From assembly GCA_023145575.1 (NCBI GenBank), contig JAGLDN010000153.1, positions 1-46,776 on the forward strand: 46,776 bases of DNA. The letters are read 5' to 3'. Source of the DNA: Psychromonas sp. Lineage in GTDB: Bacteria > Pseudomonadota > Gammaproteobacteria > Enterobacterales > Psychromonadaceae. A program made the position numbers and the translations under genes. Shown here in pieces: positions 24,087 through 46,676 of this stretch (the first letter of the stretch is position 1; the number at the start of each line of letters is the position of its first letter). The notes below the pieces were generated by a model, which saw only the letters and a list, made by a program, of their open reading frames with translations, was not told the DNA's origin and searched no databases.

Positions 24087-24833
24087 ATGAAACTTCTTGA
24101 AAATAAAAATATTATTGTCACTGGATCATGTCGTGGAATAGGGCTTGCGACCAGTCAATTATTTGCTCAACATGGCGCCAATTTATGGCTCAATGGTCGC
24201 GACGAGCTAGCACTACAAACACTCAGCGCGAAGCTAACATCTCAATTTAAAAATAATAATCATGTGTGTTGTTTTGATGTTTCTGTCTATGATCAGGTTA
24301 AAAATGGTTTTCAATCTCTTTTTAAACAATGTAAAAAACTCGATGTATTAGTTAATAATGCTGGTATATTAGACGATGCTTTGATCGGTATGGTGAGCCA
24401 AAAACAAATTGCTCACACATTTTCAACAAACACTTATAGTGTCCTGTATTGTAGTCAATATGCACAACGATTAATGATACGAAATGGTGGAGGATCTATT
24501 ATTAATTTAGCATCTATTGTCGGTGTGAATGGCAATGCAGGGCAATCTGTCTATGCCGCGAGTAAGGCCGCCATCATTGGCGCGACATTATCTTTATCAA
24601 AGGAGTTGGCAAGCGCTAATATTCGTGTAAATGCAATTGCACCAGGCTTTATCGATACTGACATGGCGCGCTCAATAGGTGACGAGTTATATTTACAACG
24701 CGTTGATAGTATTGCAATGAAACGTGTGGGTAAAGCGCAAGATATTGCCAATACAGCACTGTATCTTGCAAGTGATTTGTCCAGCTATGTGACAGGCCAA
24801 GTTATCGGCGTAGATGGTGGTATGTTAATTTGA
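24087..24833 (+). CDS. FabG-like SDR oxidoreductase
   Basis: TGSCRGIG, NNAG, YAASK, RVNAIAPG and GQVIGVDGG. Confidence 0.92.
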   Translation: MKLLENKNIIVTGSCRGIGLATSQLFAQHGANLWLNGRDELALQTLSAKLTSQFKNNNHVCCFDVSVYDQVKNGFQSLFKQCKKLDVLVNNAGILDDALIGMVSQKQIAHTFSTNTYSVLYCSQYAQRLMIRNGGGSIINLASIVGVNGNAGQSVYAASKAAIIGATLSLSKELASANIRVNAIAPGFIDTDMARSIGDELYLQRVDSIAMKRVGKAQDIANTALYLASDLSSYVTGQVIGVDGGMLI

Positions 24834-24870
24834 GTCATTGTATCTCCTATACCCTTGTTACTGGAATTAT

Positions 24871-28511: not shown

Positions 28512-28570
28512 CGTCGTCTCACTGACGTTGCATTTTAAAGTAACATTAGTATCAACTATTGGCTGATAAT

Positions 28571-30010: not shown

Positions 30011-30012
30011 AC

Positions 30013-30420
30013 ATGTCGAAAAACATTGTTGTAACCTATGGCTCCTTTGATCTTTTTCATATTGGTCACCTGCGACTACTAGCACGCGCTAAACAGTACG
30101 GAGACACTCTGATAGTGTTTGTATCCTCGGATGAATTTACTCAACAAAAAGGTAAGCAATGCTTGCTCCCTTATGAGCAACGCGCTGAAATGATTTCTGG
30201 CTGTCGCTATGTTGATAAAGTATTTACAGAACATTGCTGGGAGCAGAAAATTGAAAATATTGAAACGCTTAATGTTTCAACTTTCGTAATGGGCGATGAC
30301 TGGCAAGGGAAATTTGATTTTTTAAAAACTTATTGCGATGTTGTCTATTTGCCGAGGACCTCTTCTATTTCATCAACCTTTGTCAAGCAATCAATGCGCA
30401 TAATAGCAAATATTAATTAA
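30013..30420 (+). CDS. tagD: Glycerol-3-phosphate cytidylyltransferase-like
   Basis: TYGSFDLFHIGH, MGDDW.GKFDFL and YLPRT..ISST. Confidence 0.88.
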   Translation: MSKNIVVTYGSFDLFHIGHLRLLARAKQYGDTLIVFVSSDEFTQQKGKQCLLPYEQRAEMISGCRYVDKVFTEHCWEQKIENIETLNVSTFVMGDDWQGKFDFLKTYCDVVYLPRTSSISSTFVKQSMRIIANIN

Positions 30421-30442
30421 ACCATTAACTATAGAGTAACGT

Positions 30443-32797
30443 ATGAATAATAAAAATTTAGTGGCATTTACCCAATGCATCAAAAAGAGTAGCTTATATC
30501 AAGATTTTGTTGCCGCAATAAGTCACCCTGAAGTAACGCATGTCTCTTTTGATGTATTTGATACATTAGTTAGAAGAAGGTGCCATCTCCCAGAAAAAAT
30601 TTTTACTAAAGTCGTTGAGTGCCTTCCTGCTGATATTTCTGCTAATTTTTCACTAGACGCTACTGAATATCAACAAATACGGAAGGCTGCAGAACGATTA
30701 GCACGACATGATAGTCACAGTGAAGATATACATTTTGATGATATTTTCAAACAAATGATATTACCTCAAGCACACATTGACGTGCTGAAACAAAAAGAAA
30801 TAGAAATAGAAATAGAGCAAAGCTTTGCCGATCCTTTTTGTCACTTATTGATCAAAGCGGTGCAAAAGCTTGATAAGCAAGTGATATTTATATCCGATAT
30901 GTATCTACCTCATGCAATTATTAAACGGTTAATTGATAAATCTTGCAAGCTAACTAATTACCAATTATTTGTATCCTCTGAATTAGGAAAAACTAAGTAC
31001 ACAGGTAGCTTATTTGTGCATGTCTTATCCGAGCTTGGTATTAATGCCAGTAAACTCGTGCACATAGGCGATGACAGACTCGCAGATGTAAATTCACCCA
31101 AGATAATGGATATCAATAGTTTTTTATTTAATACCGACAAAGATTTTCTTGATATTTTGCTTCGAGAAAATAATTATCAAGTTGATTTACCAGCCAAAGT
31201 GAAGTTATCGCGTACTTTAGCAAGCTTATCAATGCCAAAGTATGAAAAAGATAGTCAACAATTTTTTTACCTGATGGGTGCTAGAATACTAGGCCCCATA
31301 TTAACACAAATGAGTCAGTGGGTAGTTGCCAATTGTTTACGATTAAAAGTAGATACGCTATTGAGCATGATGCGAGAAGGAGAAATATTTAAGGAGTGCA
31401 TAAACCGCCATATTAGCTGTCAATCTATTACAGCACTGACCACAGCCAATTTTTATGTTTCTCGACAGTCTACCTACTTACCATCAATGATAAATGCTGA
31501 TATTAAAGAGACTTTAGCTAAAATATTAAATCGTATGGGTTATACAATAGGCGATTTAATGAATGAATTTGAGATTAAGTCCTCACAATTACAGGCTTTT
31601 TCATCATTGCCTGTGAGTAGCTTAAGTAAGTTGGATGTGACAGGTAAAAATGTTTTATCCATCCTGAAAAAGGTCTTTAAGGATGCCTCTGTTAAGGTGA
31701 ACACTCAGATCAAAGAAAATCATCAACTATTTATTAAATACTTAAATCAAACCTTAGATTTTGAAGATGTCGACCAAAGTTTTGCTACCCTAGATTTAGG
31801 CCCAGGTGGCACGATAGCGAAACAATTATCAAAAGCCTCGACATTGCAAGCAAAAGTCAATTTCCAGTTGTTTTCTAGTCAACGCAGTTATGACAAATCT
31901 GTGGACATAGCGATTAAATCATTCTTGCCGCTCCTAGGTAAAAGTCACAAATCCAATGCCATTTTAGCGCGCTCTCCTGAAGTGATTGAGTATTTGCTAG
32001 TGGGAAAATCAGGCACGACCTTGGGCTATCAACGAGACAATGGAAAGGTGCAACCTGTGTGTGAAAAAAGAGAATTGAACGAGGCACAAATCCTTCAATA
32101 TGAGGCGTTTACTGAAGGAGTACGCGCTTTTCAAATTGTCGCTCAGACCTTAAATCTAGAACCTGCAGATGAGAAAGAGCGGGTCAGTTATACGCACCTA
32201 TTATCTCGATTAATTGATTGTCCGGTAAGCGATGAAGTCAAGTTTATGGGGCAATGTCAACATGAGGATAACTTTGGCACTCAAAACAAATACAACATTA
32301 TCAAAGCCGACAATATTAAATATGTTAAAGAAAAAGGCATCAATAAATTTTATATGAATTTTTGTAGGCAACCAAATGAAACTCAACGAAAAATGCCTTG
32401 GCCACAAGGAGTAATAACTCACTTGGAACCGAGTTTTTTAAATACGATTAATCGTGTTAATACTCACAAGGATGTACATTTTAGTGCAGCTCAGGAATTA
32501 ATTACCGTTTTAATCGCGAGCGATATTAACGATATTATTATTTATGGTGCAGGTGATTTTTATTTATATATCAAGCGATTTTTAGCCGAAAACAAAATTA
32601 AAGTGAGTGGCATAATAGATCGTCGAGCTCAGTTTTCGACTTTTAAAATAAATGATATTACGGTTTCTAGCATTCATAATTTTGATTTTTCGAAAACAAA
32701 AACCATTGTAATTGCATCAAGTGCATTTGTCTCTGAAATCAAAGCAGATCTTAGACAAGTAATCGATCTTAAAAAATATAATATTATTAATATTTAA
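30443..32797 (+). CDS. HAD phosphatase + phosphoribosyltransferase-like domain (candidate dual-domain ribofuranosyltransferase) + C-terminal Rossmann-like domain
   Basis: HAD: SFDVFDTL, ISDMY, K, HIGDD..AD. Second domain: MMREG, YVSRQS, PRPP-loop-like DLGPGGT and IEYLL. C-terminal IIIYGAG. Confidence 0.7.
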   Translation: MNNKNLVAFTQCIKKSSLYQDFVAAISHPEVTHVSFDVFDTLVRRRCHLPEKIFTKVVECLPADISANFSLDATEYQQIRKAAERLARHDSHSEDIHFDDIFKQMILPQAHIDVLKQKEIEIEIEQSFADPFCHLLIKAVQKLDKQVIFISDMYLPHAIIKRLIDKSCKLTNYQLFVSSELGKTKYTGSLFVHVLSELGINASKLVHIGDDRLADVNSPKIMDINSFLFNTDKDFLDILLRENNYQVDLPAKVKLSRTLASLSMPKYEKDSQQFFYLMGARILGPILTQMSQWVVANCLRLKVDTLLSMMREGEIFKECINRHISCQSITALTTANFYVSRQSTYLPSMINADIKETLAKILNRMGYTIGDLMNEFEIKSSQLQAFSSLPVSSLSKLDVTGKNVLSILKKVFKDASVKVNTQIKENHQLFIKYLNQTLDFEDVDQSFATLDLGPGGTIAKQLSKASTLQAKVNFQLFSSQRSYDKSVDIAIKSFLPLLGKSHKSNAILARSPEVIEYLLVGKSGTTLGYQRDNGKVQPVCEKRELNEAQILQYEAFTEGVRAFQIVAQTLNLEPADEKERVSYTHLLSRLIDCPVSDEVKFMGQCQHEDNFGTQNKYNIIKADNIKYVKEKGINKFYMNFCRQPNETQRKMPWPQGVITHLEPSFLNTINRVNTHKDVHFSAAQELITVLIASDINDIIIYGAGDFYLYIKRFLAENKIKVSGIIDRRAQFSTFKINDITVSSIHNFDFSKTKTIVIASSAFVSEIKADLRQVIDLKKYNIINI

Positions 32798-32809
32798 AGG
32801 AATGCCCGT

Positions 32810-34162
32810 ATGAAATCAACCCCTCTCGTCAGTATTGTTATCCCTTGTTATCAACAGCAAGATTTATTGTTGCGTGCGCTCAATTCAGTTGCAAAACAAC
32901 ATTATGATAATATCGAAGTTATCGTGGTCGATGATGGCAGTGAACCTCCTATTGTGATCAATTGGCCTCAATTTGATTTTACAGTTAAAAATATTAGGCA
33001 AGAAAATAAAGGGTTATCTAATGCGAGAAACACTGGGTTGTCTAAAGCAAGTGGTAAATACATAAAATTCCTAGATGCTGATGATAAGTTATTGCCAAAC
33101 TGCATAGAAGATCAAGTCAATAGTTTACCAGATAATAACCATTTTATTAGTGTTATCGGTTATATTGAACACCAAGAAGAAACGCAATGTGAATACAGCG
33201 TTATCCCTGCCTTTACCGATGGTTTATCTGCGTTATTGCTTGTTAATATCGGGCCACCACACGCATTTTTATATACAACTCAAAGCGTCAACAGCATCGG
33301 TGGATTTTATGAAGGTGATCGTGTAGATGGTGGTCATGAAGATTATGATCTGCTCTTTAGATTGATGATCAGTGGCATGTCCCTCATAAGCGTTCACAAA
33401 AACGGCGTGATTTACTATAAAAGAGCTGGATCGATGTCAACGATTAAACGAAGGATGGATCGCACGCTAACAAAAGTTTGGATTTATAATGTTCGACAAT
33501 TATGTCGGCAACAGGTGACGCTATCACAAACGCTATTTCTGTCTTTATTAACTGGCTATTGTCACTTAATAGAAATTACGTCACCAGAATGCTTAGCACC
33601 AATACTGGAAATTGAAGCGGAGATAATAGAATATTTAATTCATTTTATGCCTAAAACACTCGATGCTGAATTATCGTTATTGACTAAAAGGTTTTCACTC
33701 ACGAATAGAGTGCCAAAACTTGTCTCAATGATATCATTGACCAATTCGTATACAGACAACCCCATTCTCATTAATAATCAAGAAATTAATAATTGCAGAG
33801 TGAATTTAATGCAATACAATAGCGTTAATTCGACGTTAGAACAACACTATAGCATTCATCCAACGTTAGATTGGTTACAGGAAATCCTCTCTGCCGTCGC
33901 CTGCCATGAAGGATCAATCGCAGTCTATGGCGCGGGTGATTTTGGTCGCAAAATCGTTACCTTACTCTGTACTATCAACCGGCATCCTATTATAATATTT
34001 GATAGAAACCACAATCAATTTAACGCAATAAACAATATCGAAGTAGTTTCTCCTGATAATATAAACAACTATGATCTAGCACTTGTTATAGTTGCATCAC
34101 TTTTATTTAGATCTGAAATATTATCTAAACTTGATGCTTTCTCCCTTTTTGACAAAGTGTAA
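32810..34162 (+). CDS. GT2 family glycosyltransferase with C-terminal Rossmann-like domain
   Basis: VSIVIPCY, VVDDGS, GLSNARN.G, FLDADD and EDYDL; C-terminal IAVYGAGDFG. Confidence 0.9.
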   Translation: MKSTPLVSIVIPCYQQQDLLLRALNSVAKQHYDNIEVIVVDDGSEPPIVINWPQFDFTVKNIRQENKGLSNARNTGLSKASGKYIKFLDADDKLLPNCIEDQVNSLPDNNHFISVIGYIEHQEETQCEYSVIPAFTDGLSALLLVNIGPPHAFLYTTQSVNSIGGFYEGDRVDGGHEDYDLLFRLMISGMSLISVHKNGVIYYKRAGSMSTIKRRMDRTLTKVWIYNVRQLCRQQVTLSQTLFLSLLTGYCHLIEITSPECLAPILEIEAEIIEYLIHFMPKTLDAELSLLTKRFSLTNRVPKLVSMISLTNSYTDNPILINNQEINNCRVNLMQYNSVNSTLEQHYSIHPTLDWLQEILSAVACHEGSIAVYGAGDFGRKIVTLLCTINRHPIIIFDRNHNQFNAINNIEVVSPDNINNYDLALVIVASLLFRSEILSKLDAFSLFDKV

Positions 34163-34174
34163 AGTGAGATACAA

Positions 34175-34915
34175 ATGAAAAGTTATATAAATGAAATCAT
34201 TGAAAAAGCTGCAAATAAGAAAATTATTTCAGTTGATATTTTTGATACCTTGCTTCTCCGTTGCGCTAATAGCGAAGTAACACGCTTTTTCAAGGCCGCA
34301 ACTGCATTAAAAGAATCCTCCCCAGAGCTTAAAATAGATAGATATAAAGTTTTCACCACTAGACACAAGGCGCATCACTCATTATATGCTCTCTATCATC
34401 AAGGTATCCTAAGCGAACCAAACATTGAGAGTATTTTTAATTACCAAATTAATTTATTAAAAAATAAACAACTTACTTTAGAATTATTTTTAGATGCTGA
34501 AACTAAAATTGAACTCGAGTCGTTGAGTCTTAATCAACCTTTACTAAAAGCATTAGAAGTCCTAAGTGCCAGTTCGAAAATTGTATTATTATCTGATATG
34601 TATCTGACCAGTAAATTTATTAAAAACATACTTGACGCTAAAAATGTTAATCTAAAATATGACCTTCACGTTAGTAATGAAATAAAAAAATCAAAGGCTA
34701 AGGGTGATGCATACCCTTGGTTAATAGATAAATACGGTGTTTCTCCCGAGGATATTCTGCACATGGGGGATAATTATAATTCAGATGTTCTTTCAGCAGA
34801 TAAGTTCTCAATTTCCGCCATACATACTCCCAGATCAGAGATGTTTTATTTTAAACAGCGATTCTTGAATGATCGTTATGATCCCAAATTTAGGAAATAT
34901 ATCGATGAGCGTTGA
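34175..34915 (+). CDS. Stand-alone HAD phosphatase (paralog of the 30443 N-domain)
   Basis: ISVDIFDTLLLR, LSDMY, SK and LHMGDNYNSDV. Confidence 0.85.
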   Translation: MKSYINEIIEKAANKKIISVDIFDTLLLRCANSEVTRFFKAATALKESSPELKIDRYKVFTTRHKAHHSLYALYHQGILSEPNIESIFNYQINLLKNKQLTLELFLDAETKIELESLSLNQPLLKALEVLSASSKIVLLSDMYLTSKFIKNILDAKNVNLKYDLHVSNEIKKSKAKGDAYPWLIDKYGVSPEDILHMGDNYNSDVLSADKFSISAIHTPRSEMFYFKQRFLNDRYDPKFRKYIDER

Positions 34916-35696
34916 TGAATACTACAATGATGCATTCTATGAAGATCAAGCAAAACTGTCTTATCAATCAGCGCAGATTGTGCTTAAATATGTTTTTGCA
35001 CATATTGTATCAGCGACGAGTTTGCTTGACATAGGCTGTGGCACAGGCAGTTGGTTATCTGCGGCTACACAGCTCGGCGTTAAAAATATTTTAGGTTTAG
35101 ATAGTTCAAGCTCTGTTGCCAATAAATTAATGATCGACAAAAATAACTGGCAACAAACCGATATTAGTCAACCAATCTCATTACACCGAAAATTTGACCT
35201 CGCCATGTCAATGGAAGTTGCCGAACATATTAATATAGACTTCCATGAGTGTTTCATAAACAATCTAACCCAACATGCAGATACAATCCTTTTTTCTGCC
35301 GCATTACCTTATCAGGGAGGTACGGGACATCAAAGTGAAAACTGGCCACAATATTGGGCCGCGCTTTTTTCTGAAAAAGGTTATGACTGTTACGACATTA
35401 TCAGGCATAACATTTGGAACAACCCTGAAATTCAATTTTGGTACAAGCAAAATATTTTTATTTTTGCCAAACAATCATTACGAAGTAGCTTTAATAAGCG
35501 CAACTTGTTTCATACCAACAATATAATGAGTTTGATTCATCCTGAGATGTATTTATGGGCAATGGCTAGAAATAATACTGAGCAGGAAAAACAACATAAC
35601 AGAGACTTAACCTATTATCTTGCTATTACAGAAGGTCAAGAACAGTCAAGAAAGGAGCCGATATCATATGGTAAAGAATTCGAAAATAAATTCTGA
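34905..35696 (+). CDS. Class I SAM-dependent methyltransferase
   Basis: LLDIGCGTG, FDLAMSMEVAEH, FSAA.P.QGG.GH and WYKQN. Start ATG 34905 likely; ORF track gives 34869. Confidence 0.9.
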   Translation: MSVDEYYNDAFYEDQAKLSYQSAQIVLKYVFAHIVSATSLLDIGCGTGSWLSAATQLGVKNILGLDSSSSVANKLMIDKNNWQQTDISQPISLHRKFDLAMSMEVAEHINIDFHECFINNLTQHADTILFSAALPYQGGTGHQSENWPQYWAALFSEKGYDCYDIIRHNIWNNPEIQFWYKQNIFIFAKQSLRSSFNKRNLFHTNNIMSLIHPEMYLWAMARNNTEQEKQHNRDLTYYLAITEGQEQSRKEPISYGKEFENKF

Positions 35697-36855
35697 TAAT
35701 TTCTATTACAAGGTAATTGGTCCGTACATGTATGAGTGCTCCATGCGTTTATACGCGCTCATCCAAACACTCAATGAAAATAAAACGTTAAGAGTATATT
35801 TTTGTACCCGCGCAGGTATTACACTTCAACATATGTTAGATATGTTCATGAAAAAAAATAATTTAGTCTTAAATGTCGAGTTAGTGACCTTACCAGTTTC
35901 AAGGTTATCCGTTTTTATCGCATTGATAGGAGACTCACCCTTATATGCTGGGCAACAAGGTTCATTACTCTTCCCTGGCAAAAAGATAAAACAAATAATT
36001 AACTATTTACATAAAGGTAGAGAGAAAATAAATGTACAAGACTATATTAAGTTAATTCCTAAATCGATACTAACAATGAAGATCAGTCCTTGGTCTATAA
36101 GAGAATGGAGGAACTTTGACAGAGATAATATAAGTAATCAAATGTCATTTACAAAATATTCACAGCAACAAAAAGCTTTACTGAGTGAATACTTCCCTTC
36201 CGATATAGATCTTCATCTTATTGTTGATTCTGGCTTATACGGATCGACTATTGAAATGCTCTCTGCAATCGAATCTGATAAAAAAATCCTTGGTGCAATG
36301 GTTTACTTTTCAAATTACCGGTACGCGAACCCCGTTCCTCACTTTGATAATTGTACCGGATTAATGGCATTCTCTGGTAACGTCAATTTTGACATACCAC
36401 ACTCTTCAGTATTGCTACACTGGCACCTTATCGAAAATATATTAGAACCACAAAATATGAGTTCGATTACAAGTTTACCTGCAAATGTTAATATTCAAGA
36501 CATCAAATATAACAGCAATACCCAACAAGTTTTTAACTATTTTAATAGTGACAATAATTATGATATTAAAGAGGTTTTGTATCGCTTGATGAAAATCCTT
36601 GCAATACCAACAAAGGAAAACATTAAACAAATATATACAAGTCAAGTGTGTAACGATGTTGATGGCACATTACTAAACGTTATTCTCTCGCAAGAATTAC
36701 AGAAAAAGGTGAAGGCAAGAGATAAACTAAGTCACTATCGCGTTGGAATTATTAATAGAAGCTTATGGAAACCTGCACAAAGAGTGATATCTTATGGCAT
36801 ATGGGGGTATATGTTTAATTTATTTACATGGTATTATAAAAGATATATAAAATGA
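35668..36855 (+). CDS. Stand-alone glycan phosphoribosyltransferase-like protein (paralog of the 30443 middle domain)
   Basis: IGP, YFCTRAG, PVSRLS, IVDSGLYGST, LIENILE and LW.P parallel LGP, MMREG, YVSRQS, DLGPGGT, IEYLL and W in the 30443 protein. Start ATG 35668 likely. Confidence 0.6.
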   Translation: MVKNSKINSDNFYYKVIGPYMYECSMRLYALIQTLNENKTLRVYFCTRAGITLQHMLDMFMKKNNLVLNVELVTLPVSRLSVFIALIGDSPLYAGQQGSLLFPGKKIKQIINYLHKGREKINVQDYIKLIPKSILTMKISPWSIREWRNFDRDNISNQMSFTKYSQQQKALLSEYFPSDIDLHLIVDSGLYGSTIEMLSAIESDKKILGAMVYFSNYRYANPVPHFDNCTGLMAFSGNVNFDIPHSSVLLHWHLIENILEPQNMSSITSLPANVNIQDIKYNSNTQQVFNYFNSDNNYDIKEVLYRLMKILAIPTKENIKQIYTSQVCNDVDGTLLNVILSQELQKKVKARDKLSHYRVGIINRSLWKPAQRVISYGIWGYMFNLFTWYYKRYIK

Positions 36856-38867
36856 CTAAAAAAACAATGATAAAGAAATCCGTAATAGAAATCTTTATCA
36901 GTGGCTCTAAAAATGCCCGCGACTATCCTCTGGGCACTAATATAACCACTTCTTTTTTAATGATTAAAAATAAAATAACTTATACATCACCTGCTTCAAC
37001 AAGGGTAATAGGCTTTCGTACTTACCCTGCCGCTTATTCACACCATCTTATTGATTTAATGCGTATCATTGAATGTCATATGAAGGTGAAATTATATTTT
37101 ATAATCAGCATTAATGAATTTAACCAAGATCCTGATTGGTATATTACACATACCGCTGGTTTTAATTTGTTGCTATGTGATGATGAACAATTTAGTCTAC
37201 TATATTTTTTTGATATTGTTTTCTTACAAGAAAATTATCTTTATAATACAAATGTTTTACCACAAAACGTTGCCAAAATTGGTTTGGCGCATGGCGTAGA
37301 TGTTGACTTAAGCATGTCATTAACATTATTTGGTGGTGCTTTTGAATATGACTATTTATTGCTTAGTAAAGCACCAAACAAGCACACTTTCGGGGAATAT
37401 TTAGACACTTTTCCCAGTCAATTACGAGATCACTGTAGTAGTAACATTACTTTGATCCCTTTTGGAAGTCCTAAACTTGATCGAATGATCAAAGCAGTTA
37501 ATCTGACGAGTCAATCCGCAATTATTTATCATCTATCTCATCTTTCAATGGAAGCTGAATGGGTTCTTGACGTGATTTACCCAACGTTGTTGTTGTTACT
37601 AAAAAACTTTCCCAATAATCAAATCATTTTTAGACCATTTCCAAAATATATTAATAGTGATTTTATCAGAGATCTTGAATTAAGTTTCTCGACATATCCT
37701 AATTTTTTCTTAAGCAAAGGGGCCTCATATATTGATGATTATGCAAAGGGTGCAGTGATGATAGCCCACAGAAAATATGATGAGCATTTATTTAATTTAG
37801 CGACAGGTTTTAAGACGATAATCTATGAGCCGAATCAGTCAATGCTAACACTTGAACCGTCAATAAAACCTGATTATATTATCTATAGTAATACGGATTT
37901 AGTGACGCAAGTCAAATACTGCTTGGAATTTGCAAAAACAATCATGCCAGACAATCGATTTGATATTGCCAAACAAGCGGGTATTTATAATGTAGGAAAA
38001 TCTTTGAATGCACTTATTAGTGCGATTGAAACGATTTTGAGAAAGCAAGACCCCCCCGATACCTGGCCGATAATTGCGCTACAATCTGATGTAGATATAC
38101 CATTAAACACCTTACTGAAAATATATCTTTATAGCGGCCTTCCATTTCATAGCATCGCACTTATAGCGGCAAGCAAATTCCCAAAAAGTGTTATATTTCA
38201 ATTATTGGTTAGTGAGGCTTGTTCAAGATGCTTTAGTTTTGAAGGTGAATATTGGACAATAGCATTTGATGCTTTTTATAATGCCATCAATCACGTAAAC
38301 CTGTCCCCTGTTATGAAACATATGTTAACGCATTGGTGGATATTAAATGGTGATAAATTGATGCAAAGACATCAAATAGAATTACAAATGCGCGAGGCTA
38401 AACTCAGGAAAAAAGAGATTTTCATCATTAAGCAAATGGAAACAATAACACGCAGATTACAAAATATAGCAGGGAGTTACGAGTATTTTCTTGAAAATAT
38501 TGAAACAAGTTGCATTTATGAGTTAGGGTCTAAATCTGAAACTCTGAGTCTGTCTCTTATCGGATCAGAGGAATTAGCAGTATCATTTATTCAATGGAAT
38601 AATATTCACAAACGCCATCATATTGTCAGTGTTCATCATTTAGATGCCGAAAAGCACGGCAGTAAATTTTATCAATATACTATCGAAAGCCTTACATCTC
38701 TTGCACAAAAAAAAAATCCTATTTTAATTTGTTATAAAGAGCTTTATAAAAATGTTTATCTGTATTTAAGACGAACCCAGCACTACACACAAGACATCTT
38801 ATTTTGGGATAATAACCCTTGCTGGAAAGCATTAACGATACCCATGTTAGCGAAAGATACTTTGTGA
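36852..38867 (+). CDS. Hypothetical protein with divergent TagF/GT-B-like motifs (candidate CDP-donor phosphotransferase)
   Basis: 671-aa ORF; IGLAHG, PFGSPKLD, IIY and IIFRPFP occur in the order of TagF HG / GYPR.D / IYAPT / K.HP. C-terminal Rossmann-like segment. Confidence 0.5.
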   Translation: MTKKTMIKKSVIEIFISGSKNARDYPLGTNITTSFLMIKNKITYTSPASTRVIGFRTYPAAYSHHLIDLMRIIECHMKVKLYFIISINEFNQDPDWYITHTAGFNLLLCDDEQFSLLYFFDIVFLQENYLYNTNVLPQNVAKIGLAHGVDVDLSMSLTLFGGAFEYDYLLLSKAPNKHTFGEYLDTFPSQLRDHCSSNITLIPFGSPKLDRMIKAVNLTSQSAIIYHLSHLSMEAEWVLDVIYPTLLLLLKNFPNNQIIFRPFPKYINSDFIRDLELSFSTYPNFFLSKGASYIDDYAKGAVMIAHRKYDEHLFNLATGFKTIIYEPNQSMLTLEPSIKPDYIIYSNTDLVTQVKYCLEFAKTIMPDNRFDIAKQAGIYNVGKSLNALISAIETILRKQDPPDTWPIIALQSDVDIPLNTLLKIYLYSGLPFHSIALIAASKFPKSVIFQLLVSEACSRCFSFEGEYWTIAFDAFYNAINHVNLSPVMKHMLTHWWILNGDKLMQRHQIELQMREAKLRKKEIFIIKQMETITRRLQNIAGSYEYFLENIETSCIYELGSKSETLSLSLIGSEELAVSFIQWNNIHKRHHIVSVHHLDAEKHGSKFYQYTIESLTSLAQKKNPILICYKELYKNVYLYLRRTQHYTQDILFWDNNPCWKALTIPMLAKDTL

Positions 38868-38989
38868 TATTAAGCGACAATTAACTTGCCCGATCCGCGA
38901 CAACTAACGCGACCAATTTTGGTAAACTTCAGACACGTTTAATCACTAAGATATTTTACATGCCTAAACATCGAATGATCTTTTAAGGG

Positions 38990-39480
38990 ATCCTTTACTA
39001 TTTAGTCGCCATAACGGACATTAAGGCAAGACATTTATAGGTGTTTAAATACCACCACTGTTTGCCCTGAGACCACACCTAAAGCAGTGCAATATGGCGA
39101 TAAAGATAAGACCCATGTCGTGTACATGTTGCAATACCAATTATTACCTTGCCATCGCGTGAAAGCACTTTTTTTAGCCAAATGGGCTTCACTATTTGGG
39201 TATCGCTATTGGTGTTGTCTCACTCTATAATTTTAATAAAATAGTTTATTAAGCCCTTAGTAATTTTAAAAAATAAGTAAAAGCATTGGTAGGCGCGACG
39301 ATTACACATGTTGATGAAGCAGGCGTAAACATTGCAGATCAGGATCACTGGCTACACTTAACTTCAAATGAAGCGTGGACTTTTTGCTACCCTCATAAAA
39401 AGCGCGTCATACCCACTGAAATGATCCCATTTCATGAATATAGCCATGTTACAGTAAGGTGCACTCTCTGCCATTAACTC
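38990..39480 (+). mobile_element. IS66-family TnpC transposase remnant
   Basis: Fragments PKAVQYG, HVVYMLQYQLLP..R and HVDEAGVNI...HWLHLTSNEAWTFCYPHKKR; frameshifted; boundaries approximate. Confidence 0.75.
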
Positions 39481-39761
39481 AGATGGCAGGTCAAGGCACA
39501 ACATGTGGAAGTAGATACTCCCTTTTACATTGTTGAGCCTAAAGCTGCATTTCGACAAAAGTACAAACTTGTGAACATAAAGCATACAGTTCAATTAGAC
39601 CAGTATATGATATTACGGTATTATGGGTTGTCAACTTTATACTTTTAGCTAAGCCTCAACTCTGCCCGTGGTCAATTTCACGGTTTATCGAAGATGTACG
39701 CTTTAATTATAATTCTCTAAAGTAGTTGCAATTATTATTTATATAACTTTAAAGGTTTAAC

Positions 39762-40754
39762 ATGCCCCTTCAACGAAATGGCGATAGTCACGAAAACAAC
39801 GTCTTTACATATATTGAATTTGGTTCGATCAATCGTAAAAAAGGCAAGAAAGAAGTATATGACTTCCGTGTTGATCAAAAAGCATATGACTGGTTGATGC
39901 ATGCTCGCTATTCTAATGATATATTTGCTTATAAGCTGATGACTGATGCCTTAATAACGTTGAATATTGAACAAATAATTAGCACTTTTAAAAATGAAAT
40001 TCATCATGATAATGATTTCATTTTCAACCTAAATAAAAAAATTGCGTTAGATATTACAGGTGACTCTTTTTTTGAATTAGGACAAACTCTTTATGGTTGT
40101 ATTGAGAGTATTGATTTTATTAATAAACTAGAGCAACATTTGTTTCCTGCAAATTCACAGAAAATATGTTTAAAAAATATTAAATGGTTCGGTGTTGATA
40201 TCTCATCATTTTTTAATTTTATGGCACGAAAAATACATGAAGGTTACAAAATAGATACATCAACCCTGCTCTGTGATGCACCTGCGCGTTATGATGTGTT
40301 TTACGCAAAGGGGGTTACCTTGTTATATGCCATTAACTCGGCAAGGGAACTATTTAATCTTGTAACTAACGCTAAAATAGCAGTATTTGATTACTCTATC
40401 AGTTTAACTGAACAAGAGGACACATATATTGGGACGGGCAAGTCTGTACGGTTCTTGAGTAAAGGTCAATTCAACTCTTTTGTTAAATTGGTACGTAGTA
40501 CAGGGAAAGATGTTTGGGTGAGGGGCAATCTAAAAGGTGATTTTAAAACCAACAGATTATATTTGGAAGTCGTAATCGCTGATGATTTTTTATTCAACAC
40601 TTTTATGAAAAAGCAAAATGATTATATTTTAACGTTACAAAAAAATGAGCCAATGCTCTTTGCAACCTTGGTACATAATAAAAATCCAAACTATTGCAAT
40701 TGGTCTAAATTTTCAGATAGTTGTATACCCATGAGTCTTCAAGATGCAAGGTAA
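39762..40754 (+). CDS. Hypothetical protein with degenerate class I methyltransferase fold
   Basis: FFELGQTLYG (motif I-like), WFGVDIS (motif II) and YDVFYAKGVTLLYA (motif IV-like) in canonical order. Confidence 0.5.
   Translation: MPLQRNGDSHENNVFTYIEFGSINRKKGKKEVYDFRVDQKAYDWLMHARYSNDIFAYKLMTDALITLNIEQIISTFKNEIHHDNDFIFNLNKKIALDITGDSFFELGQTLYGCIESIDFINKLEQHLFPANSQKICLKNIKWFGVDISSFFNFMARKIHEGYKIDTSTLLCDAPARYDVFYAKGVTLLYAINSARELFNLVTNAKIAVFDYSISLTEQEDTYIGTGKSVRFLSKGQFNSFVKLVRSTGKDVWVRGNLKGDFKTNRLYLEVVIADDFLFNTFMKKQNDYILTLQKNEPMLFATLVHNKNPNYCNWSKFSDSCIPMSLQDAR
40724..40749 (+). repeat. ERIC/MITE-like terminal motif (copy 2), overlapping the 3' end of ORF 39762-40754
   Basis: tatacccatgagtcttcaagatgcaa; 21/26 identical to 7512-7537. 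Confidence 0.55.
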
Positions 40755-40881
40755 TCAAAGGGAATTTTACAAAAGGGAAGTCATAATATTGTTCTCTGGC
40801 ATGATTAATGGCGTTATTAATACTAGAAATGCATTAAAGTGGAGACGTTAATTGTTAATTAATTATTCGAGATCAATATTA

Positions 40882-40905
40882 TATGCTCATTTAACCTAAA
40901 GATGC
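40882..40905 (+). repeat. ERIC/MITE-like terminal motif (copy 3)
   Basis: tatgctcatttaacctaaagatgc; 20/24 identical to 7512-7535. Confidence 0.5.
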
Positions 40906-41000
40906 TTGATCAGGTAAACTCATGTCTAACAATGCATGATTGGTTTCATGGCAATAATGACAGTATCAAAAGCCTCTAATAAGTTTTATACGGAGTCATA

Positions 41001-41522
41001 ATGGTTATTTGGTTAATTGGCTTGTCAGGCGCAGGTAAAACCATGATAGGCAAAGTACTTTATCAACAATTAAAAAACAAAAAACAGGCAACGGTGTTTG
41101 TTGATGGTGATGACATTAGGGCTATTTTTGCGCAAAGTTCACTACATGACTACTCAATTGAAGGACGGCGCATAAGTGCCGAGAGAATACAAGAAATTTG
41201 TTTATGGCTGGATAAACAAGGAATCGATGTGGTTTGCTGTAATTTGGGACTTTTTACCGATATTAATAATAATAATCGAAACATATTTTCAACTTATAAA
41301 GAAATATTTATTGATGTGCCAATTAAAAATTTAATAAATAGAGATAATAAGGGATTATATAGTGCTGCACTTAACGGCGAAAGATCAGACGTAGTGGGAA
41401 TTAATATCAAGTACACGACTCCTCTCTTTGCCGATTTAATTATAAAAAACAGTCAAAAGACAAAAGACATAAACAGATATGTTGAAAAAATAATATTAAT
41501 GATCAATAAGGACGTAATGTGA
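41001..41522 (+). CDS. APS-kinase-like protein; probable cytidine diphosphoramidate 3'-kinase (Cj1415-like)
   Basis: IWLIGLSGAGKT P-loop, VDGDDIR, RDNKGLY and VVG; co-operonic with Cj1416/17/18 homologs; RBS GGAG. Confidence 0.8.
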   Translation: MVIWLIGLSGAGKTMIGKVLYQQLKNKKQATVFVDGDDIRAIFAQSSLHDYSIEGRRISAERIQEICLWLDKQGIDVVCCNLGLFTDINNNNRNIFSTYKEIFIDVPIKNLINRDNKGLYSAALNGERSDVVGINIKYTTPLFADLIIKNSQKTKDINRYVEKIILMINKDVM

Positions 41523-42964
41523 ACGCTTATCCATATTGTTATGGCCCATTACTTGAAACACCACAGAATTATATGTACAGCCCCTATTTAGGCCCTGGAT
41601 TTATTTCTGATTGGGCTTTATCGCGAGGATCCTATTTAACTAAATTTGGCACTCCCGAGCTTATAGTGTTAACTCCACAATATTCTTTTTTCAGTTCAGA
41701 TCACCCTAATGCTTTTTCGACAAGAGCTATCATAGAACAGCTTTGCTTGGATCTAAGGGGGGGAAATAAAACCTCATATGATGTGACATACTGGCTTGAT
41801 CGTTTGCTAAAAAAATTCGAAGTGAGTAAACGCATTTACAAAAGTTATGGCAAAAATTCGCCACATTATATGATTAGAGAGAGTGGCTTTGAGGATTTAA
41901 ACCTTTATTTACTGTTCGCTGAAGTACTTGTTCATGCGTGGAAACACAAATCAATATCACAGTATATTAATGGATTACTGAAGTTAGTAGATACACTGAT
42001 ATCACAAACCGCTCTTTTAAATATAAAGCAAAAGAAACACCTAGCATGGGTTATAAATAAAGAAAAAATTATTTTAGATAGCATCATTAGCCGCTTAAAA
42101 TTAACAGAAATGAATGATTTTCAGCACGATTCAATTCAATTTGACTCATTGTCATTTAATGAGTATATGTCGCCACATATAGAGCCATCTTACTCTGAAT
42201 TTACATATAAGATGAATAATGATTGTTCTTATGATACTAAACAACACCCTAAGATATTACTTTTGTTTGGACATACTGTCCGATCAGCTAGTTATATCCA
42301 GGCCCTTTGCAATGCTAATATTACACCTCATTCTATTATTGCTTATGGTCAGCAACAAGAGCAACCGACATCATCAAGAATACTCAATATGAGTACTTAT
42401 TCTGATCTTTTTTCTCCTAATCTTCAATTAAATCTTCTACAAAGTTTGATCCAATCTCAATATTTATATACATTATCGACATCAAATGAGCTCTCTTCTC
42501 CTGATTTATTAAGGCAAATTGCTGAGGTAGATCCTGACTTAATTATTTATTCTGGATATGCAGGACAGTTAGTACCAGCATCCATTATTAGCAATTACCA
42601 TGTATTGCATATTCACGCTGGATGGCTTCCTGATTTTCGAGGCAGTACAACATTGTTTTATGAAATAATTGAGGAGAAGATGTGCGCTACCACTGCTATT
42701 TTATTAGATGAAACGATAGATACTGGTGACATTGTTGCTCAAAAACACTTTGCAATGCCGACACCTGGTATGGATGTAGATCATCTATATGATAATATGA
42801 TCAGAGCTGATCTATTAATCGAGATTTTAACGCATTATAACGAATCTGTAGAAGATTGGAAAATAACACCTCAAACCCAACATTGTTTGCCTTATTTCAT
42901 TATTCATCCTTTATTAAAGCATTTGGCGATGTTGATCATTGATAAAGAGAAAGTGGCTCTATGA
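41519..42964 (+). CDS. Fusion of an unknown helical N-terminal domain (~200 aa) and a formyltransferase (Fmt/PurN fold)
   Basis: C-half PDLIIYSGY.GQ, LHIHAGWLPDFRGST and LDETIDTGDIV. N-half has YMYSPY.G, LLKKFEV.KRIY and YINGLLKLVDTL. GTGA and ATGA overlaps with both neighbours. Confidence 0.78.
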   Translation: MNAYPYCYGPLLETPQNYMYSPYLGPGFISDWALSRGSYLTKFGTPELIVLTPQYSFFSSDHPNAFSTRAIIEQLCLDLRGGNKTSYDVTYWLDRLLKKFEVSKRIYKSYGKNSPHYMIRESGFEDLNLYLLFAEVLVHAWKHKSISQYINGLLKLVDTLISQTALLNIKQKKHLAWVINKEKIILDSIISRLKLTEMNDFQHDSIQFDSLSFNEYMSPHIEPSYSEFTYKMNNDCSYDTKQHPKILLLFGHTVRSASYIQALCNANITPHSIIAYGQQQEQPTSSRILNMSTYSDLFSPNLQLNLLQSLIQSQYLYTLSTSNELSSPDLLRQIAEVDPDLIIYSGYAGQLVPASIISNYHVLHIHAGWLPDFRGSTTLFYEIIEEKMCATTAILLDETIDTGDIVAQKHFAMPTPGMDVDHLYDNMIRADLLIEILTHYNESVEDWKITPQTQHCLPYFIIHPLLKHLAMLIIDKEKVAL

Positions 42965-45345
42965 CAATTGATCATCCTCAATTTATTTTTGGCAGCAAAT
43001 CGGAAACGTTAACGCGCCTTAAACCGTTATTAAACGAATCTACAATTTTACCAATGATATATTTTTCGCAAGAAGATTGGCAACATGATCGCAACCTAAT
43101 TTTAACAAGGATCAGAGCATTTTCATCGGCAGAAAAATTAATTATTAGGAGCAGTGCGAAAAATGAAGACAGCCATGAAAGCTCAATGGCGGGAGCTTAT
43201 TTAAGTTGTCTTAATATCTGCATTAATAATGAAACAGGGCTCATAAGCGCAATTGAAAAAGTTATCGGATCCTTTAGTGAATTTTCTCAAGCAGATAATC
43301 AAATATTAATTCAACCTATGTTAACTGATATCAACATGTCAGGTGTTATCATGACGCACGATATTGAGCGTGGCTCTCCGTATTATGTCATAAATTATGA
43401 TGATGAGAGTGGGTTAACCGATACCATTACTGGTGGCGTGGGCATTCACAAAACGGTACTTATTTACCGATATGTGTCGCGAGATAAGATTCATTCTACT
43501 CGCATAAAATCACTATTACTTGCTTGTACCGAGATAGAAAAATACTGTGCCAATGTGCCACTTGATATTGAATTTGCTATCAATAAATCGGGTAATGTTT
43601 ACATATTTCAAGTTCGACGTATTACTCTGATCAATACATGGCACCCTGTAACAGAGCGAAAAATAGCGAGAACGTTAAAGTATGTCACACAGTTTATTCA
43701 TCAAACGATGAACAAAAAAAAAGGGGTGTATGGTAAAAAAACAATACTGGGTGTTATGCCTGATTGGAACCCCGCAGAAATTATTGGCACAACGCCTCGG
43801 CCTTTATCTTCATCTTTATATCGCTATCTAATTACCGATTCTATTTGGCGGACATCACGTGCTGCAATGGGCTATTATCATCCTAAAAACGAAGACTTGA
43901 TGGTAATGATTGATCATCATCCCTATATTGATGTGAGAAATAGCTTCAACACTTTTCTACCTGACAAACTCTCAAGCAGCATTAAAGAAAAATTACTTAA
44001 CGCGTGGATAGCTAGATTAGAAAAATACCCTGAAATGCATGATAAAATTGAGTTTGAGATAGTTCAAACCTGTTTAGATTTTACTTTTGATCAGGATTTT
44101 GAAAATCGTTATAAAAATCTATTAAGTGCCTCTGAGCTGATCGAATACCGCAATGCACTTTGTTCATTAACCTATGACGCAATACTTATGGCAAAAAGTG
44201 GAACATTATCCCAAGCAACCACAATGATTAATGAACTTGCTATTGAACAATCAGTTCATGATTTGCAATCTCGCCAAGCAGATCTGAGCACAGTGCGGGA
44301 TTTATTAATTTCATGCAGAGATAAAGGCACTTATGCTTTTTCAATACTCGCACGTCATGCCTTTATTGCTGAGGCTTTACTACGATCAATTGTTTTTCGA
44401 GATGTGTTGAGTCCTGAACGTTCGCAACAATTTAAACAATCCATCCACACCATTACAACGAATTTAGCTTCTGAATATAGTGAAGTGTGCCAAGGTTTAA
44501 AGCCCGTAAAAGAATTTCTAAATATATTTGGTCACCTTCGCCCAGGTACCTATGATATTACTTCCCTTCGTTATGATGAGCGAAATGATCTTTTTAAGGG
44601 CTCTATTAACAAGACAATAACAAATATTGCAACTTCGTTCACTTTAAATAAATCTGAACGAAAAAAACTACGGTTGTTATTAAAAGAAGCTCAATTTTCA
44701 ATTGAGGTTGAACAACTTTTAACATACATGAAAAGTGCAATTAAAGGTCGTGAATTTGCTAAATGTGTCTTTACGCGTGACTTATCTGATGCGCTTGCCA
44801 CTTTGACGCAATGGGGACAAAAAAACGGATTATCACGGAAGGATCTTTCCTACCTTGATATCAACATTTTACTCGACACATTAACTAATCCATTACTTGA
44901 CGATCCTGACCGCGTTTTATTGCATTATGTAGAGAAGGCAAAACGTGAATGCGAGCAAGCAAACTCACTCAAGTTAGGGCATTTGATTTCAAATCCTAAT
45001 AATGTTTTTGTCATACCCATTCATCGTAGTTTGGCGAACTTTATCACCAGCAAAGTGGTTGAATCTGCCTTAAGTGTATTGTATTTAGACACACCTGCAA
45101 CAACGAAGTTAAGGAATAAAATAATCTGTATTAAAAATGCAGATCCTGGCTATGATTGGTTATTTACCAAAGGGATTGCCGGATTAATTACTCAATACGG
45201 TGGCACAAATTCACATATGGCCATCCGTTGTGCTGAGTTTTCTATTCCTGCTGCTATCGGTTGTGGTGAACAACTATTTTCTCGCATTCTCAAATCTCAA
45301 AAGTTAGTATTAAATTGCCGAGATAAAAAGATTGAGTTGTTGTAA
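42961..45345 (+). CDS. L-glutamine kinase (Cj1418-like; PPDK/PEP-utiliser family)
   Basis: ATP-grasp IIRSSA..ED, LIQPM and DIEFA..YIFQVR; central MPDWNPAEIIG and GHLRPGTYDI; phospho-His domain ADPGYDWLF..GGTNSHMAIRCAE; 794 aa. Confidence 0.88.
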   Translation: MTIDHPQFIFGSKSETLTRLKPLLNESTILPMIYFSQEDWQHDRNLILTRIRAFSSAEKLIIRSSAKNEDSHESSMAGAYLSCLNICINNETGLISAIEKVIGSFSEFSQADNQILIQPMLTDINMSGVIMTHDIERGSPYYVINYDDESGLTDTITGGVGIHKTVLIYRYVSRDKIHSTRIKSLLLACTEIEKYCANVPLDIEFAINKSGNVYIFQVRRITLINTWHPVTERKIARTLKYVTQFIHQTMNKKKGVYGKKTILGVMPDWNPAEIIGTTPRPLSSSLYRYLITDSIWRTSRAAMGYYHPKNEDLMVMIDHHPYIDVRNSFNTFLPDKLSSSIKEKLLNAWIARLEKYPEMHDKIEFEIVQTCLDFTFDQDFENRYKNLLSASELIEYRNALCSLTYDAILMAKSGTLSQATTMINELAIEQSVHDLQSRQADLSTVRDLLISCRDKGTYAFSILARHAFIAEALLRSIVFRDVLSPERSQQFKQSIHTITTNLASEYSEVCQGLKPVKEFLNIFGHLRPGTYDITSLRYDERNDLFKGSINKTITNIATSFTLNKSERKKLRLLLKEAQFSIEVEQLLTYMKSAIKGREFAKCVFTRDLSDALATLTQWGQKNGLSRKDLSYLDINILLDTLTNPLLDDPDRVLLHYVEKAKRECEQANSLKLGHLISNPNNVFVIPIHRSLANFITSKVVESALSVLYLDTPATTKLRNKIICIKNADPGYDWLFTKGIAGLITQYGGTNSHMAIRCAEFSIPAAIGCGEQLFSRILKSQKLVLNCRDKKIELL

Positions 45346-45965
45346 TGCATGAAAAACACACTTTTAAAGCTTTAATTTTTATAAGCCAACGAGTCGATTA
45401 CCTTAAAGAGCGTAATGAAACAAGAGATTCGATTGACCAAGCATTAACTCAGTGGGTGATCGCAGCTGATGCAATTCCCCTGTGTTTACCAAATGTTTTA
45501 TCAGAAGACATGCTAAATCAATTGCTAACACAACTAAAGCCAGATGGTATTATTCTCTCTGGCGGCAATAATATCGGCCAGTATTTGCAACGAGATAGCA
45601 CTGAACACTTTTTGTTTAATTGGGCGTTGTTAAACAAAATACCTGTATTAGGCATTTGTCGTGGTATGCAACTGATCGGTAAATTATCTGGCGTATCGCT
45701 AATCTCTGTTAGCGGGCATACGGCAGTAAAACATAAAATTGAGGGAATATTAAACGCTGATGTGAAGAGCTATCATGATAAAGTATTAGAGAATGTGCCT
45801 AGTGGTTTTAATGCATTAGCTTATGCTTTAGATGGACATCTAGAAGCCATTAAATCTACCTCAGATTGGCCCTGTGAGGCATGGATGTGGCATCCTGAAA
45901 GAGAAACCCCTTTTAACTCAATATGGCTAGCACGGTTTCGATCATTAATCAAAGAGAATAAATAG
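45345..45965 (+). CDS. gamma-glutamyl-CDP-amidate hydrolase (Cj1417-like; class I glutamine amidotransferase/peptidase C26)
   Basis: ISQRVD..ETRDSIDQ, LSGGN, catalytic GICRGMQ and MWHPERE. Confidence 0.85.
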   Translation: MHEKHTFKALIFISQRVDYLKERNETRDSIDQALTQWVIAADAIPLCLPNVLSEDMLNQLLTQLKPDGIILSGGNNIGQYLQRDSTEHFLFNWALLNKIPVLGICRGMQLIGKLSGVSLISVSGHTAVKHKIEGILNADVKSYHDKVLENVPSGFNALAYALDGHLEAIKSTSDWPCEAWMWHPERETPFNSIWLARFRSLIKENK

Positions 45966-46676
45966 ATGAAAGCATTAATATTAGCTGCTGGTAGAGGAAG
46001 TCGAATGAACGATCTCACAGAGCACCGCCCAAAATGTTTAGTTAAATTAAATGGAAAAACATTACTTGCCTATCAGTTAGCTGCGTTACAGGAAGCTGGG
46101 ATAACTGATATTGGCATTGTAACTGGCTATCGTGCAAAAATGCTTAGGCAATTTAACTTAACAGAATTTCATAATGCTCGTTGGTCACAAACTAATATGG
46201 TGCATTCGCTTAGTTGTGCTAAGACATGGCTAAAAGATGATTGTATCATCAGCTATTCAGATATATTCTATAGCGCATCAGCTGTTACCTTGTTGATTAA
46301 AACGAAAGCTGATATTGCGATTACCTACGATCCAAATTGGTTAGAGCTATGGAAAAATCGTTTTGAAGATCCACTCAGCGATGCTGAAACATTTCGCATA
46401 AATGATCACAATGAGTTAATGGAAATTGGCGGTAAGCCACAAAATATTGAGCAAGTGCAAGGCCAATATATGGGATTGCTTAAGTTTACCCCAATAGGCT
46501 GGGCTAGACTTGAAGAATTACGTCAAACGCTTACACCAGAATTACGAGACAAAATACACATGACAGGTGCACTACAAAACATAATTAAAAGGCGTATATT
46601 AGCGATTAAAGCAATCCCCTATTTGGAACGATGGGGAGAGGTTGATTCAGCAGAAGATTTAGCATGTTATCACTAA
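45966..46676 (+). CDS. CTP:phosphoglutamine cytidylyltransferase (Cj1416-like; LicC family)
   Basis: ILAAGRGSRM, PKCL, TNMVHSL, YSDI, W..RFEDPLSDAETF, GQYMGLLKF and W.EVDS..DL. Confidence 0.85.
   Translation: MKALILAAGRGSRMNDLTEHRPKCLVKLNGKTLLAYQLAALQEAGITDIGIVTGYRAKMLRQFNLTEFHNARWSQTNMVHSLSCAKTWLKDDCIISYSDIFYSASAVTLLIKTKADIAITYDPNWLELWKNRFEDPLSDAETFRINDHNELMEIGGKPQNIEQVQGQYMGLLKFTPIGWARLEELRQTLTPELRDKIHMTGALQNIIKRRILAIKAIPYLERWGEVDSAEDLACYH

Follow-up and report, generated by a model that had tools for sequence, protein, structure and literature searches.

A two-part formyltransferase-like module of phosphoramidate cassettes and its possible role in N-formyl phosphoramidate decoration

What does a formyltransferase-like gene do in an operon of phosphoramidate-type genes, and to which acceptor would its product pass a formyl group? 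The question is raised by a fused gene of Psychromonas sp. (assembly GCA_023145575.1, contig JAGLDN010000153.1). We analysed the entire 46.8-kb contig (C61; hereafter the window), whose end falls shortly past the five-gene operon that holds this gene. The gene lies at 41519-42964 on the plus strand, encodes 481 aa and starts with GTG, with AAGGA located 7 nt upstream. Its product belongs to a two-part, formyltransferase-like kind of module that is widespread in phosphoramidate cassettes and apparently undescribed. We tentatively propose, at slightly short of an even chance, that this module moves a formyl group from 10-formyltetrahydrofolate (10-formyl-THF) to the nitrogen of a phosphoramidate, which would give an N-formyl phosphoramidate sugar decoration. 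The operon consists of the following genes:

41001-41522, plus strand: adenylyl-sulfate (APS)-kinase-fold gene, Cj1415-like, likely cytidine diphosphoramidate 3'-kinase (PF01583; NF004041 above cut-off)
41519-42964, plus strand: fused gene, 481 aa, with a helical N-domain, a linker and a formyltransferase-fold domain (open reading frame, Pfam, AlphaFold2)
42961-45345, plus strand: PPDK-like gene, Cj1418-like, likely glutamine kinase, with His752 in the mobile domain (PF01326 and PF00391; NF004508 above cut-off)
45345-45965, plus strand: class I glutamine-amidotransferase-fold gene, Cj1417-like, likely gamma-glutamyl-CDP-amidate hydrolase, with Cys105/His183 (PF07722)
45966-46676, plus strand: nucleotidyltransferase gene, Cj1416-like, likely phosphoglutamine cytidylyltransferase (PF12804)

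Cj1415-Cj1418-type enzymes convert glutamine, ATP and CTP to CDP-phosphoramidate 3'-phosphate, according to the available text of the source (PMC11800397). In Campylobacter jejuni they belong to the O-methyl phosphoramidate (MeOPN) pathway, together with the transferases Cj1421/Cj1422. All four types are present here, namely a PPDK-like kinase, a nucleotidyltransferase, a class I amidohydrolase and an APS-kinase-fold kinase. This likeness rests on domain types and family profiles, and the best NCBIfam match of the hydrolase, NF045546, remained under its cut-off (66.9 vs 250). In contrast to the C. jejuni pathway, for which the sources available in part name no such module, an N-domain and formyltransferase module is inserted between the two kinase genes, and it overlaps each of them by 4 nt, in agreement with the earlier note. 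The fusion is not an assembly artefact, since contigs of two other runs cross the junction between the two domains with zero differences (41622-42372 and 41912-42243). One contig of one run has a joint at 40874-42649 that omits 1774 bases; its short side is 20 letters and it is probably spurious. Part of the operon is covered by contigs from RNA libraries, which may derive from DNA, and a promoter/terminator scan stayed at chance level (32 vs 34.1; 4 vs 4.4).

AlphaFold2 modelling of the full protein (44 sequences) gave a predicted local distance difference test score (pLDDT) of 85.7 and a predicted template modelling score (pTM) of 0.86, with a single disordered stretch at residues 200-240. 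The protein is divided as follows:

41519-42103, plus strand: N-domain, aa 1-195, all-helical, of an undescribed family, predicted partner subunit of the formyltransferase domain
42116-42238, plus strand: disordered linker, aa 200-240, pLDDT < 50, not in split relatives
42245-42943, plus strand: formyltransferase-fold domain, aa 243-475 (PF00551; structural match to Fmt)
42608-42721, plus strand: altered catalytic site, His364, His366 and Asp401
42893-42925, plus strand: C-terminal YFIIHPLLKHL motif, aa 459-469, predicted N-domain docking surface

The earlier note had read formyl-THF transferase motifs in the C-terminal half, with His in place of the usual Asn. Both observations held: the motifs are H364-I-H366-A-G-W-L-P-D-F-R-G and D397-E-T-I-D401-T-G, and in alignments with Fmt, PurN and VioF-type enzymes, His364 takes the position of their Asn. 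This half matched Formyl_trans_N (PF00551) with E 3e-10 and 40.6 bits vs a cut-off of 26.1, and it stayed under every NCBIfam cut-off, among them those for fmt (42.5 vs 201.5), PurN (27.8 vs 150.1) and dTDP-Qui4N formyltransferase (NF005755; 33.2 vs 238). Structural comparison gave Z scores of 19.2 for Fmt, 18.3 for ArnA, 18.1 for the hydrolase domain of formyltetrahydrofolate dehydrogenase (FDH), 16.2 for HypX and about 15.5 for sugar formyltransferases, and the superposition on Fmt had a root-mean-square deviation (rmsd) of 2.9-3.0 Å over 190-197 residues. The domain therefore shares with Fmt, PurN, ArnA, VioF, FdtF/QdtF, WlaRD, WbkC and PseJ the fold (Z 15-19), the folate-site segments, which are conserved as SGxGGQ[IV], LPxxRG and IDxG, and the catalytic His and Asp of canonical amine N-formyltransferases, present as H366 and D401. 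It differs from Fmt, PurN, ArnA and the sugar N-formyltransferases in having His instead of the catalytic Asn two residues before that His, in having neither a Formyl_trans_C barrel nor ankyrin repeats, and in its separate or fused helical partner, which is predicted to dock on a family-specific C-terminal motif. The FDH hydrolase domain and the HypX N-domain have the same fold (Z ~18 and ~16), and FDH also lacks the Asn; however, Ile stands there instead of His, no acyl-carrier, dehydrogenase or enoyl-CoA-hydratase partner is found here, and the context here is glycan decoration. H364, H366, D401, R429 and H463 were invariant in 182 of 182 close members and D425 was kept in 181, while all six were kept in four of four distant members, which were found by neighbourhood alone. 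Judged from these residues, the site looks active but non-canonical.

We surveyed the family by a GTDB scan that selected on the HxH and IHPxLKH motifs, and the best 80 of 203 relatives were kept as loci. The earlier note had tied its proposal to the linkage of homologues with glutamine-kinase clusters and to co-occurrence with the N-domain, fused or split. The results showed that 78 of the 80 loci contained a glutamine kinase, the other two being 2.6-kb and 10-kb contigs, and that cytidylyltransferase, 3'-kinase and hydrolase genes were present in 78, 76 and 76 loci, respectively, across several phyla. A lack of such linkage, which the note had named as refuting its proposal, was therefore not seen. 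The N-domain was present in 79 loci, fused in 16 and encoded by a separate gene 5' of the formyltransferase gene in 63; the sole locus without it lies at a contig start. The 3'-kinase stood directly 5' of the N-domain in 73 of the 74 loci having both. Other fusions were kinase-N-formyltransferase (P0007), kinase-N (P0303, L029 and L066) and cytidylyltransferase-N (P0308), which ties the N-domain to enzymes of the pathway. Given these fusions and the split relatives, the unit is a two-protein module, of which the fusion here is one arrangement; since 63 of 79 relatives are split, the fusion is incidental and we rejected a special meaning for it. Of 58 matches in a protein search, 47 were family members (E<=8e-39); most of these were full-length fusions, as the search was confined to lengths of 264-842 aa. 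In P0209, the N-domain forms the C-terminus of a 400-aa, probably membrane-anchored protein without Pfam match. The cassette is also carried by cultured, non-pathogenic pseudomonads, and Pseudomonas chlororaphis has members of the family. Among 62 pattern matches in viral contigs, no relatives were found, and a metagenome scan with one distant member returned only two near-identical loci.

The N-terminal ~200 aa had been described in the earlier note as a domain that could not be named, joined by a linker of ~50 aa. Residues 1-200 indeed had no Pfam match below E 0.09; the linker is present, but the low-confidence stretch covers about 40 aa. Across 73 members, the Pfam search found no family common to more than two, a PDB sequence search gave no match (best E 0.78), and Foldseek on the all-helical N-domain model (pLDDT 93.6, pTM 0.91) returned nothing at E<=0.001, all E values being above 0.09. 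A 73-row profile of the N-domain collected 1999 representatives at E<=0.001 and 496 at 1e-30. The best structural matches were parts of (alpha/alpha)6 barrels (Z 10.1, rmsd 3.5 Å, 154 aligned residues, 10% identity). The helical hairpins superpose on part of the barrel of (alpha/alpha)6 sugar enzymes, such as N-acylglucosamine (AGE)/cellobiose 2-epimerases and GH88, whereas the N-domain amounts to about half a barrel. Its score falls under the Z of ~13 that the tool advises for helical proteins and lies within the range common for helical packing, so neither kinship nor function follows from it.

When the N-domain and the formyltransferase domain were folded as separate chains, the complex scored 0.93 vs 0.00 for the best control; the docking mark was passed by 116 of 157 solved pairs and by 2 of 215 mismatched pairs. 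Contact agreement between runs was at least 97%, and partner pLDDT was at least 89. Among solved structures, no relative of the N-domain came up. In the predicted interface, the motif at residues 459-469 of the formyltransferase domain meets N-domain residues 18-32, 97-102 and 146-155, and residues 348, 377, 381 and 421 of the formyltransferase domain also take part. This interface accounts for many invariant residues in both halves and suggests that the N-domain completes the acceptor pocket; the two domains are predicted to form one heterodimeric enzyme.

These observations are consistent with the following mechanism. By homology with C. jejuni, 3'-phospho-CDP-amidate would arise through the four pathway enzymes, namely glutamine kinase, cytidylyltransferase, hydrolase and 3'-kinase. 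The formyltransferase domain, given its fold and residues, would bind folate via His366/Asp401. The N-domain is predicted to clamp the YFIIHPLLKHL motif and to touch the T377/Y381/D421 side of the site, where it probably completes the acceptor pocket in place of the C-terminal barrel of Fmt; a speculative role for His364 is to tune the site to a P-NH2 group of low nucleophilicity. The phosphoramidate group would be attached by a transferase to a glycan made in the cytoplasm; because flagellin, fliD, maf and pse genes open the island, the flagellin glycan is the most likely target here. Formylation could come before or after this transfer. The acceptor need not bear a 3'-phosphate, because no 3'-kinase was found nearby in three of the four distant members or in four forward loci (in one case the locus lies at the start of its contig). 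At L062, L063, L076, L091, L131, L134 and L142, where no 3'-kinase was found nearby, the glutamine kinase is ~1000-1030 aa long and has an extra N-terminal nucleotidyltransferase-like domain. The module would then be an alternative to S-adenosylmethionine (SAM)-dependent methyl capping.

We examined this last point in a reverse survey, for which three overlapping samples of 400 genomes were searched, with glutamine kinases in 6, 13 and 11 genomes. This gave 31 loci, with up to ~9 kb per side, picked without regard to the module. The module was present in ten of the 31 (four of these ten repeat loci of the forward set), with six close members of the family and four distant ones. Among the distant members, two had a short partner matching the N-domain profile, and two had an adjacent small gene that did not score against it (E 0.6 and 2.9). 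One family of 250-aa class I SAM-methyltransferases was present in 14 of the 21 module-negative loci, in none of the 10 module-positive loci and in none of the 80 forward loci; seven reverse-survey loci, one a 2-kb contig, had neither. Searches of NCBIfam, PDB, plasmids and homologues identified this methyltransferase as a class I SAM enzyme, and we regard it as a candidate for the still unassigned O-methylation step of MeOPN. The family (e.g. L133:5575-6321) counts 3800 proteins at E<=1e-30. Against the Psychromonas genome itself (94% complete), its best match had E 7e-8 over ~100 positions, with no full-length match. The uncorrected Fisher test for the exclusion gave p 0.0005, an overstatement given kinship. 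In a FastTree tree of 72 glutamine kinases, which left out 29 near-duplicate forward loci, four duplicates and partial sequences, module-bearing loci were interleaved within a methyltransferase-rich clade, with seven methyltransferase changes, at least five of them forced by well-supported branches. The exclusion pattern is suggestive but not significant after the kinship correction given below. Together with stand-alone cassettes in which no sugar genes were found, it helps the N-formyl phosphoramidate reading.

Several points weigh against that reading. Phosphoramidate nitrogen is only weakly nucleophilic, and its acylation leads to an amide of higher energy. The Asn that His364 replaces is crucial in Fmt, ArnA and GART, so that the chemistry may differ, and at this position Ile is found in the hydrolase domain of FDH, which uses a non-amine acceptor (available text of PMC4388273). 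The invariance among close members is partly circular, because the GTDB scan selected on those motifs, and R255 was lost in the distant members. The docked chains are two halves of one fused gene, a kind that tends to pass. After correction for kinship, the exclusion was not significant (0 pairs the same way, ~4 opposite, p 0.125, 100 rows). Other methyltransferase families were present in 23 of the 80 module loci, and a methyltransferase gene lies in this window at 34869-35696. The identity of the excluded methyltransferase with Cj1419/Cj1420 was not established, as the NCBIfam, PDB, plasmid and homologue searches gave no Cj gene among the matches listed; Cj1419 and Cj1420 themselves are methyltransferases without assigned function in the available text of PMC11800397 and PMC3417588. 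Finally, a DegT-type aminotransferase was present within the fetched flanks of 52 of the 80 loci, and FdtA in 45. The full reading is that of a widespread undescribed branch, in which an N-formyl phosphoramidate, sugar-O-P(O)(OH)-NH-CHO, is placed on flagellin and surface glycans through a heterodimeric His-His-Asp formyltransferase that is swapped against a SAM-methyltransferase, a formyl versus a methyl cap; we hold this whole picture only provisionally, at appreciably below even chance.

We consider it unlikely that the module serves the same pathway with other chemistry, that is, as a folate-linked hydrolase, by O- or S-formyl transfer as in FDH or HypX, or in a metal-dependent step with His364, His366 and Asp401 as ligands. 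The linkage evidence is the same for this explanation as for N-formylation, and fold relatives without the amine-type site pass formyl to thiols or water (PMC4388273; thiol acceptors of FDH and HypX in PMC6802093, both as available in part). A second site may possibly lie on the N-domain, where the conserved K104, R105, Y110, Y130, D158 and E182 are not among the listed interface residues (K104, R105, Y110, D158 and E182 being those proposed for such a site), and the best structural matches of this domain are parts of sugar epimerases and hydrolases. However, those matches stay below the level advised for helical proteins, and it is mainly the docking helix that the short partners of the distant members retain, a sign that the N-domain has a structural role. 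The conserved folate-site segments, and closest folds that are Fmt and ArnA rather than FDH and HypX, also speak against other chemistry.

A further explanation, which we find distinctly improbable, is N-formylation of a nucleoside diphosphate (NDP)-amino sugar, of the Qui3N/Fuc3N type or a precursor of formamido-pseudaminic acid, with the same sugar also receiving the phosphoramidate. The aminotransferase and FdtA counts given above, the weak similarity of the formyltransferase domain to VioF, FdtF, WbkC and PseJ, and the pse genes and maf in the window count for it. The earlier note had argued from the lack of an aminotransferase in the window. None was found among the window proteins, but the argument is weak on its own, because the contig ends past the operon and an aminotransferase gene, which we take to be PseC-like from its sequence, lies on another contig of the same genome; nor can absence here be the argument when aminotransferases are common beside relatives. 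What speaks against the amino sugar is that an acylase of their own is encoded in 41 of the 52 loci with an aminotransferase (an FdtC-type acetyltransferase in 29, a second, conventional formyltransferase in 12), and that an aminotransferase is lacking in 14 of the 51 loci whose 10-kb flanks are complete. The module also stays next to the kinase (73 of 74 loci) and not the aminotransferase, and it scored 33 vs the cut-off of 238 for NF005755. At L003, L004, L007 and L047, a seven-gene cassette stands among housekeeping genes and comprises a TagF-like transferase, kinase, N-domain, formyltransferase, glutamine kinase, hydrolase and cytidylyltransferase; sugar-gene profiles gave no sugar-pathway gene there among the matches listed, although the sugar may be made elsewhere in those genomes. 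Formamido-pseudaminic acid, the alternative of the earlier note, is unlikely because pse genes occur in only 2-5 of the 80 loci and the window has its own PseH-like acetyltransferase gene (90.9 bits vs a cut-off of 93.1). As a function of the family, it was rejected.

It appears very improbable that the module formylates the alpha-amine of a glutamyl carrier (glutamine phosphate or CDP-glutamine) for protection or channelling. To our knowledge, this alpha-amine is the only ordinary amine of the pathway, and the cytidylyltransferase-N-domain fusion P0308 fits such a step. However, 76 of 80 loci retain the hydrolase, which here has Cys105/His183, so that a formyl group on the glutamyl carrier would depart with the glutamate, and the module is missing from 21 of the 31 glutamine-kinase loci. 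We give hardly any credence to the module being catalytically dead and acting in the pathway as a scaffold or a folate-sensing regulator. The lost Asn and the fusion of the N-domain to two different pathway enzymes might point that way, but even the four distant members retain the His, His, Asp, Asp and Arg around the site.

Returning to N-formyl phosphoramidate transfer, the usual partner transferase of the family is TagF-like (PF04464; 49 of 80 loci), and we regard this family as a candidate phosphoramidate transferase. Its members are ~350 aa long (e.g. L006:8407-9462) and stand directly 5' of the kinase in many loci; they are also fused to tetratricopeptide-repeat (TPR), GT41 or GT61 proteins. 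Sulfatase-family genes adjoin the cassette in six of the 80 loci (L040, L046, L050, L058, L061 and L068), and two genes of no named family (L079:8175-9431 and L089:12644-13735) have N-termini that we presume, by impression, to be sulfotransferase-like. These sulfatase-family and sulfotransferase-like genes are possible alternative transferases for a donor resembling 3'-phosphoadenylyl sulfate (PAPS). Two further genes of the window lie 5' of the operon:

36852-38867, plus strand: 671-aa gene of no named family, candidate phosphoramidate transferase of this locus
39762-40754, plus strand: 330-aa gene of no named family, 5' of the APS-kinase-like gene, with relatives in 4 of 80 loci

The 671-aa gene has relatives in four of the 80 loci, and none of those four has a TagF-like gene. 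Its motifs are faintly like those of the TagF-like family, the profile comparison was not significant (probability 0.2-0.3%), and its PDB profile matches were confined to the C-terminal Rossmann-like part; its candidacy as the transferase of this locus is a weak lead. The 330-aa protein may be a divergent methyltransferase fold: one of four members matched a methyltransferase family at E 0.036, PDB gave none, and profile-profile comparison gave at most 2%. The two genes are adjacent in L002 and L011 and are parted here by one of three intergenic stretches of short broken frames resembling transposase remnants (38870-39760, 15400-17030 and 2820-4440), possibly IS66-, IS630- and IS4-like by their motifs.

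The window holds a flagellin glycosylation island, in contrast to the capsule locus of the C. jejuni MeOPN pathway. Flagellin, fliD, maf, pseF/I/G and the PseH-like gene come first and the five-gene operon last. Between the pse genes and the operon lie a block of short-chain dehydrogenase/reductase (SDR), AMP-ligase, LuxE and LuxC genes, a TagF/TagD pair and glycosyltransferases. The SDR, AMP-ligase, LuxE-like and LuxC-like genes (24087-28511) are likely to produce an acyl or reduced substituent; such genes also adjoin the cassette in L011 and L016. The stretch at 28559-36855 encodes a TagF-like transferase with a TagD-like cytidylyltransferase, two haloacid dehalogenase (HAD)-domain proteins, a GT2 glycosyltransferase, a methyltransferase and a 411-aa protein of no named family; these genes probably serve further decorations, possibly glycerol phosphate among them.

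Within open-access PMC and bioRxiv, as far as the matched texts go and with subscription papers outside that scope, no paper describing the module was found, and the open-access matches listed for formyl phosphoramidate, formylphosphoramidate and formamidophosphate held no mention of them. The word 'formyl' occurs nowhere in the available text of a review of natural organophosphorus groups (PMC6429109), and the accessible part of a Borg preprint mentions the Cj1416-1418 trio without it. Unmethylated phosphoramidates are reported, in texts available in part, from the lipopolysaccharides of Xanthomonas and Shewanella (PMC3907429) and from C. jejuni (PMC9561416).

If the N-formyl phosphoramidate reading is true, the family would provide a natural P-NH-CHO group and a phosphoramidate-acylating formyltransferase, neither of which was found in the literature searched. 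By our own arithmetic, a glycan carrying the decoration would be heavier by 106.977 Da, a shift close to the 107.014 Da of aminoethylphosphonate, so low-resolution data could have misassigned it. The module would also give a role to an N-domain family of ~2000 representatives that has so far been nameless. In C. jejuni, phages use MeOPN as a receptor, and the group influences serum resistance and invasion, as far as the available text of the sources goes; given these roles, a swappable formyl/methyl cap would constitute a new axis of surface variation.

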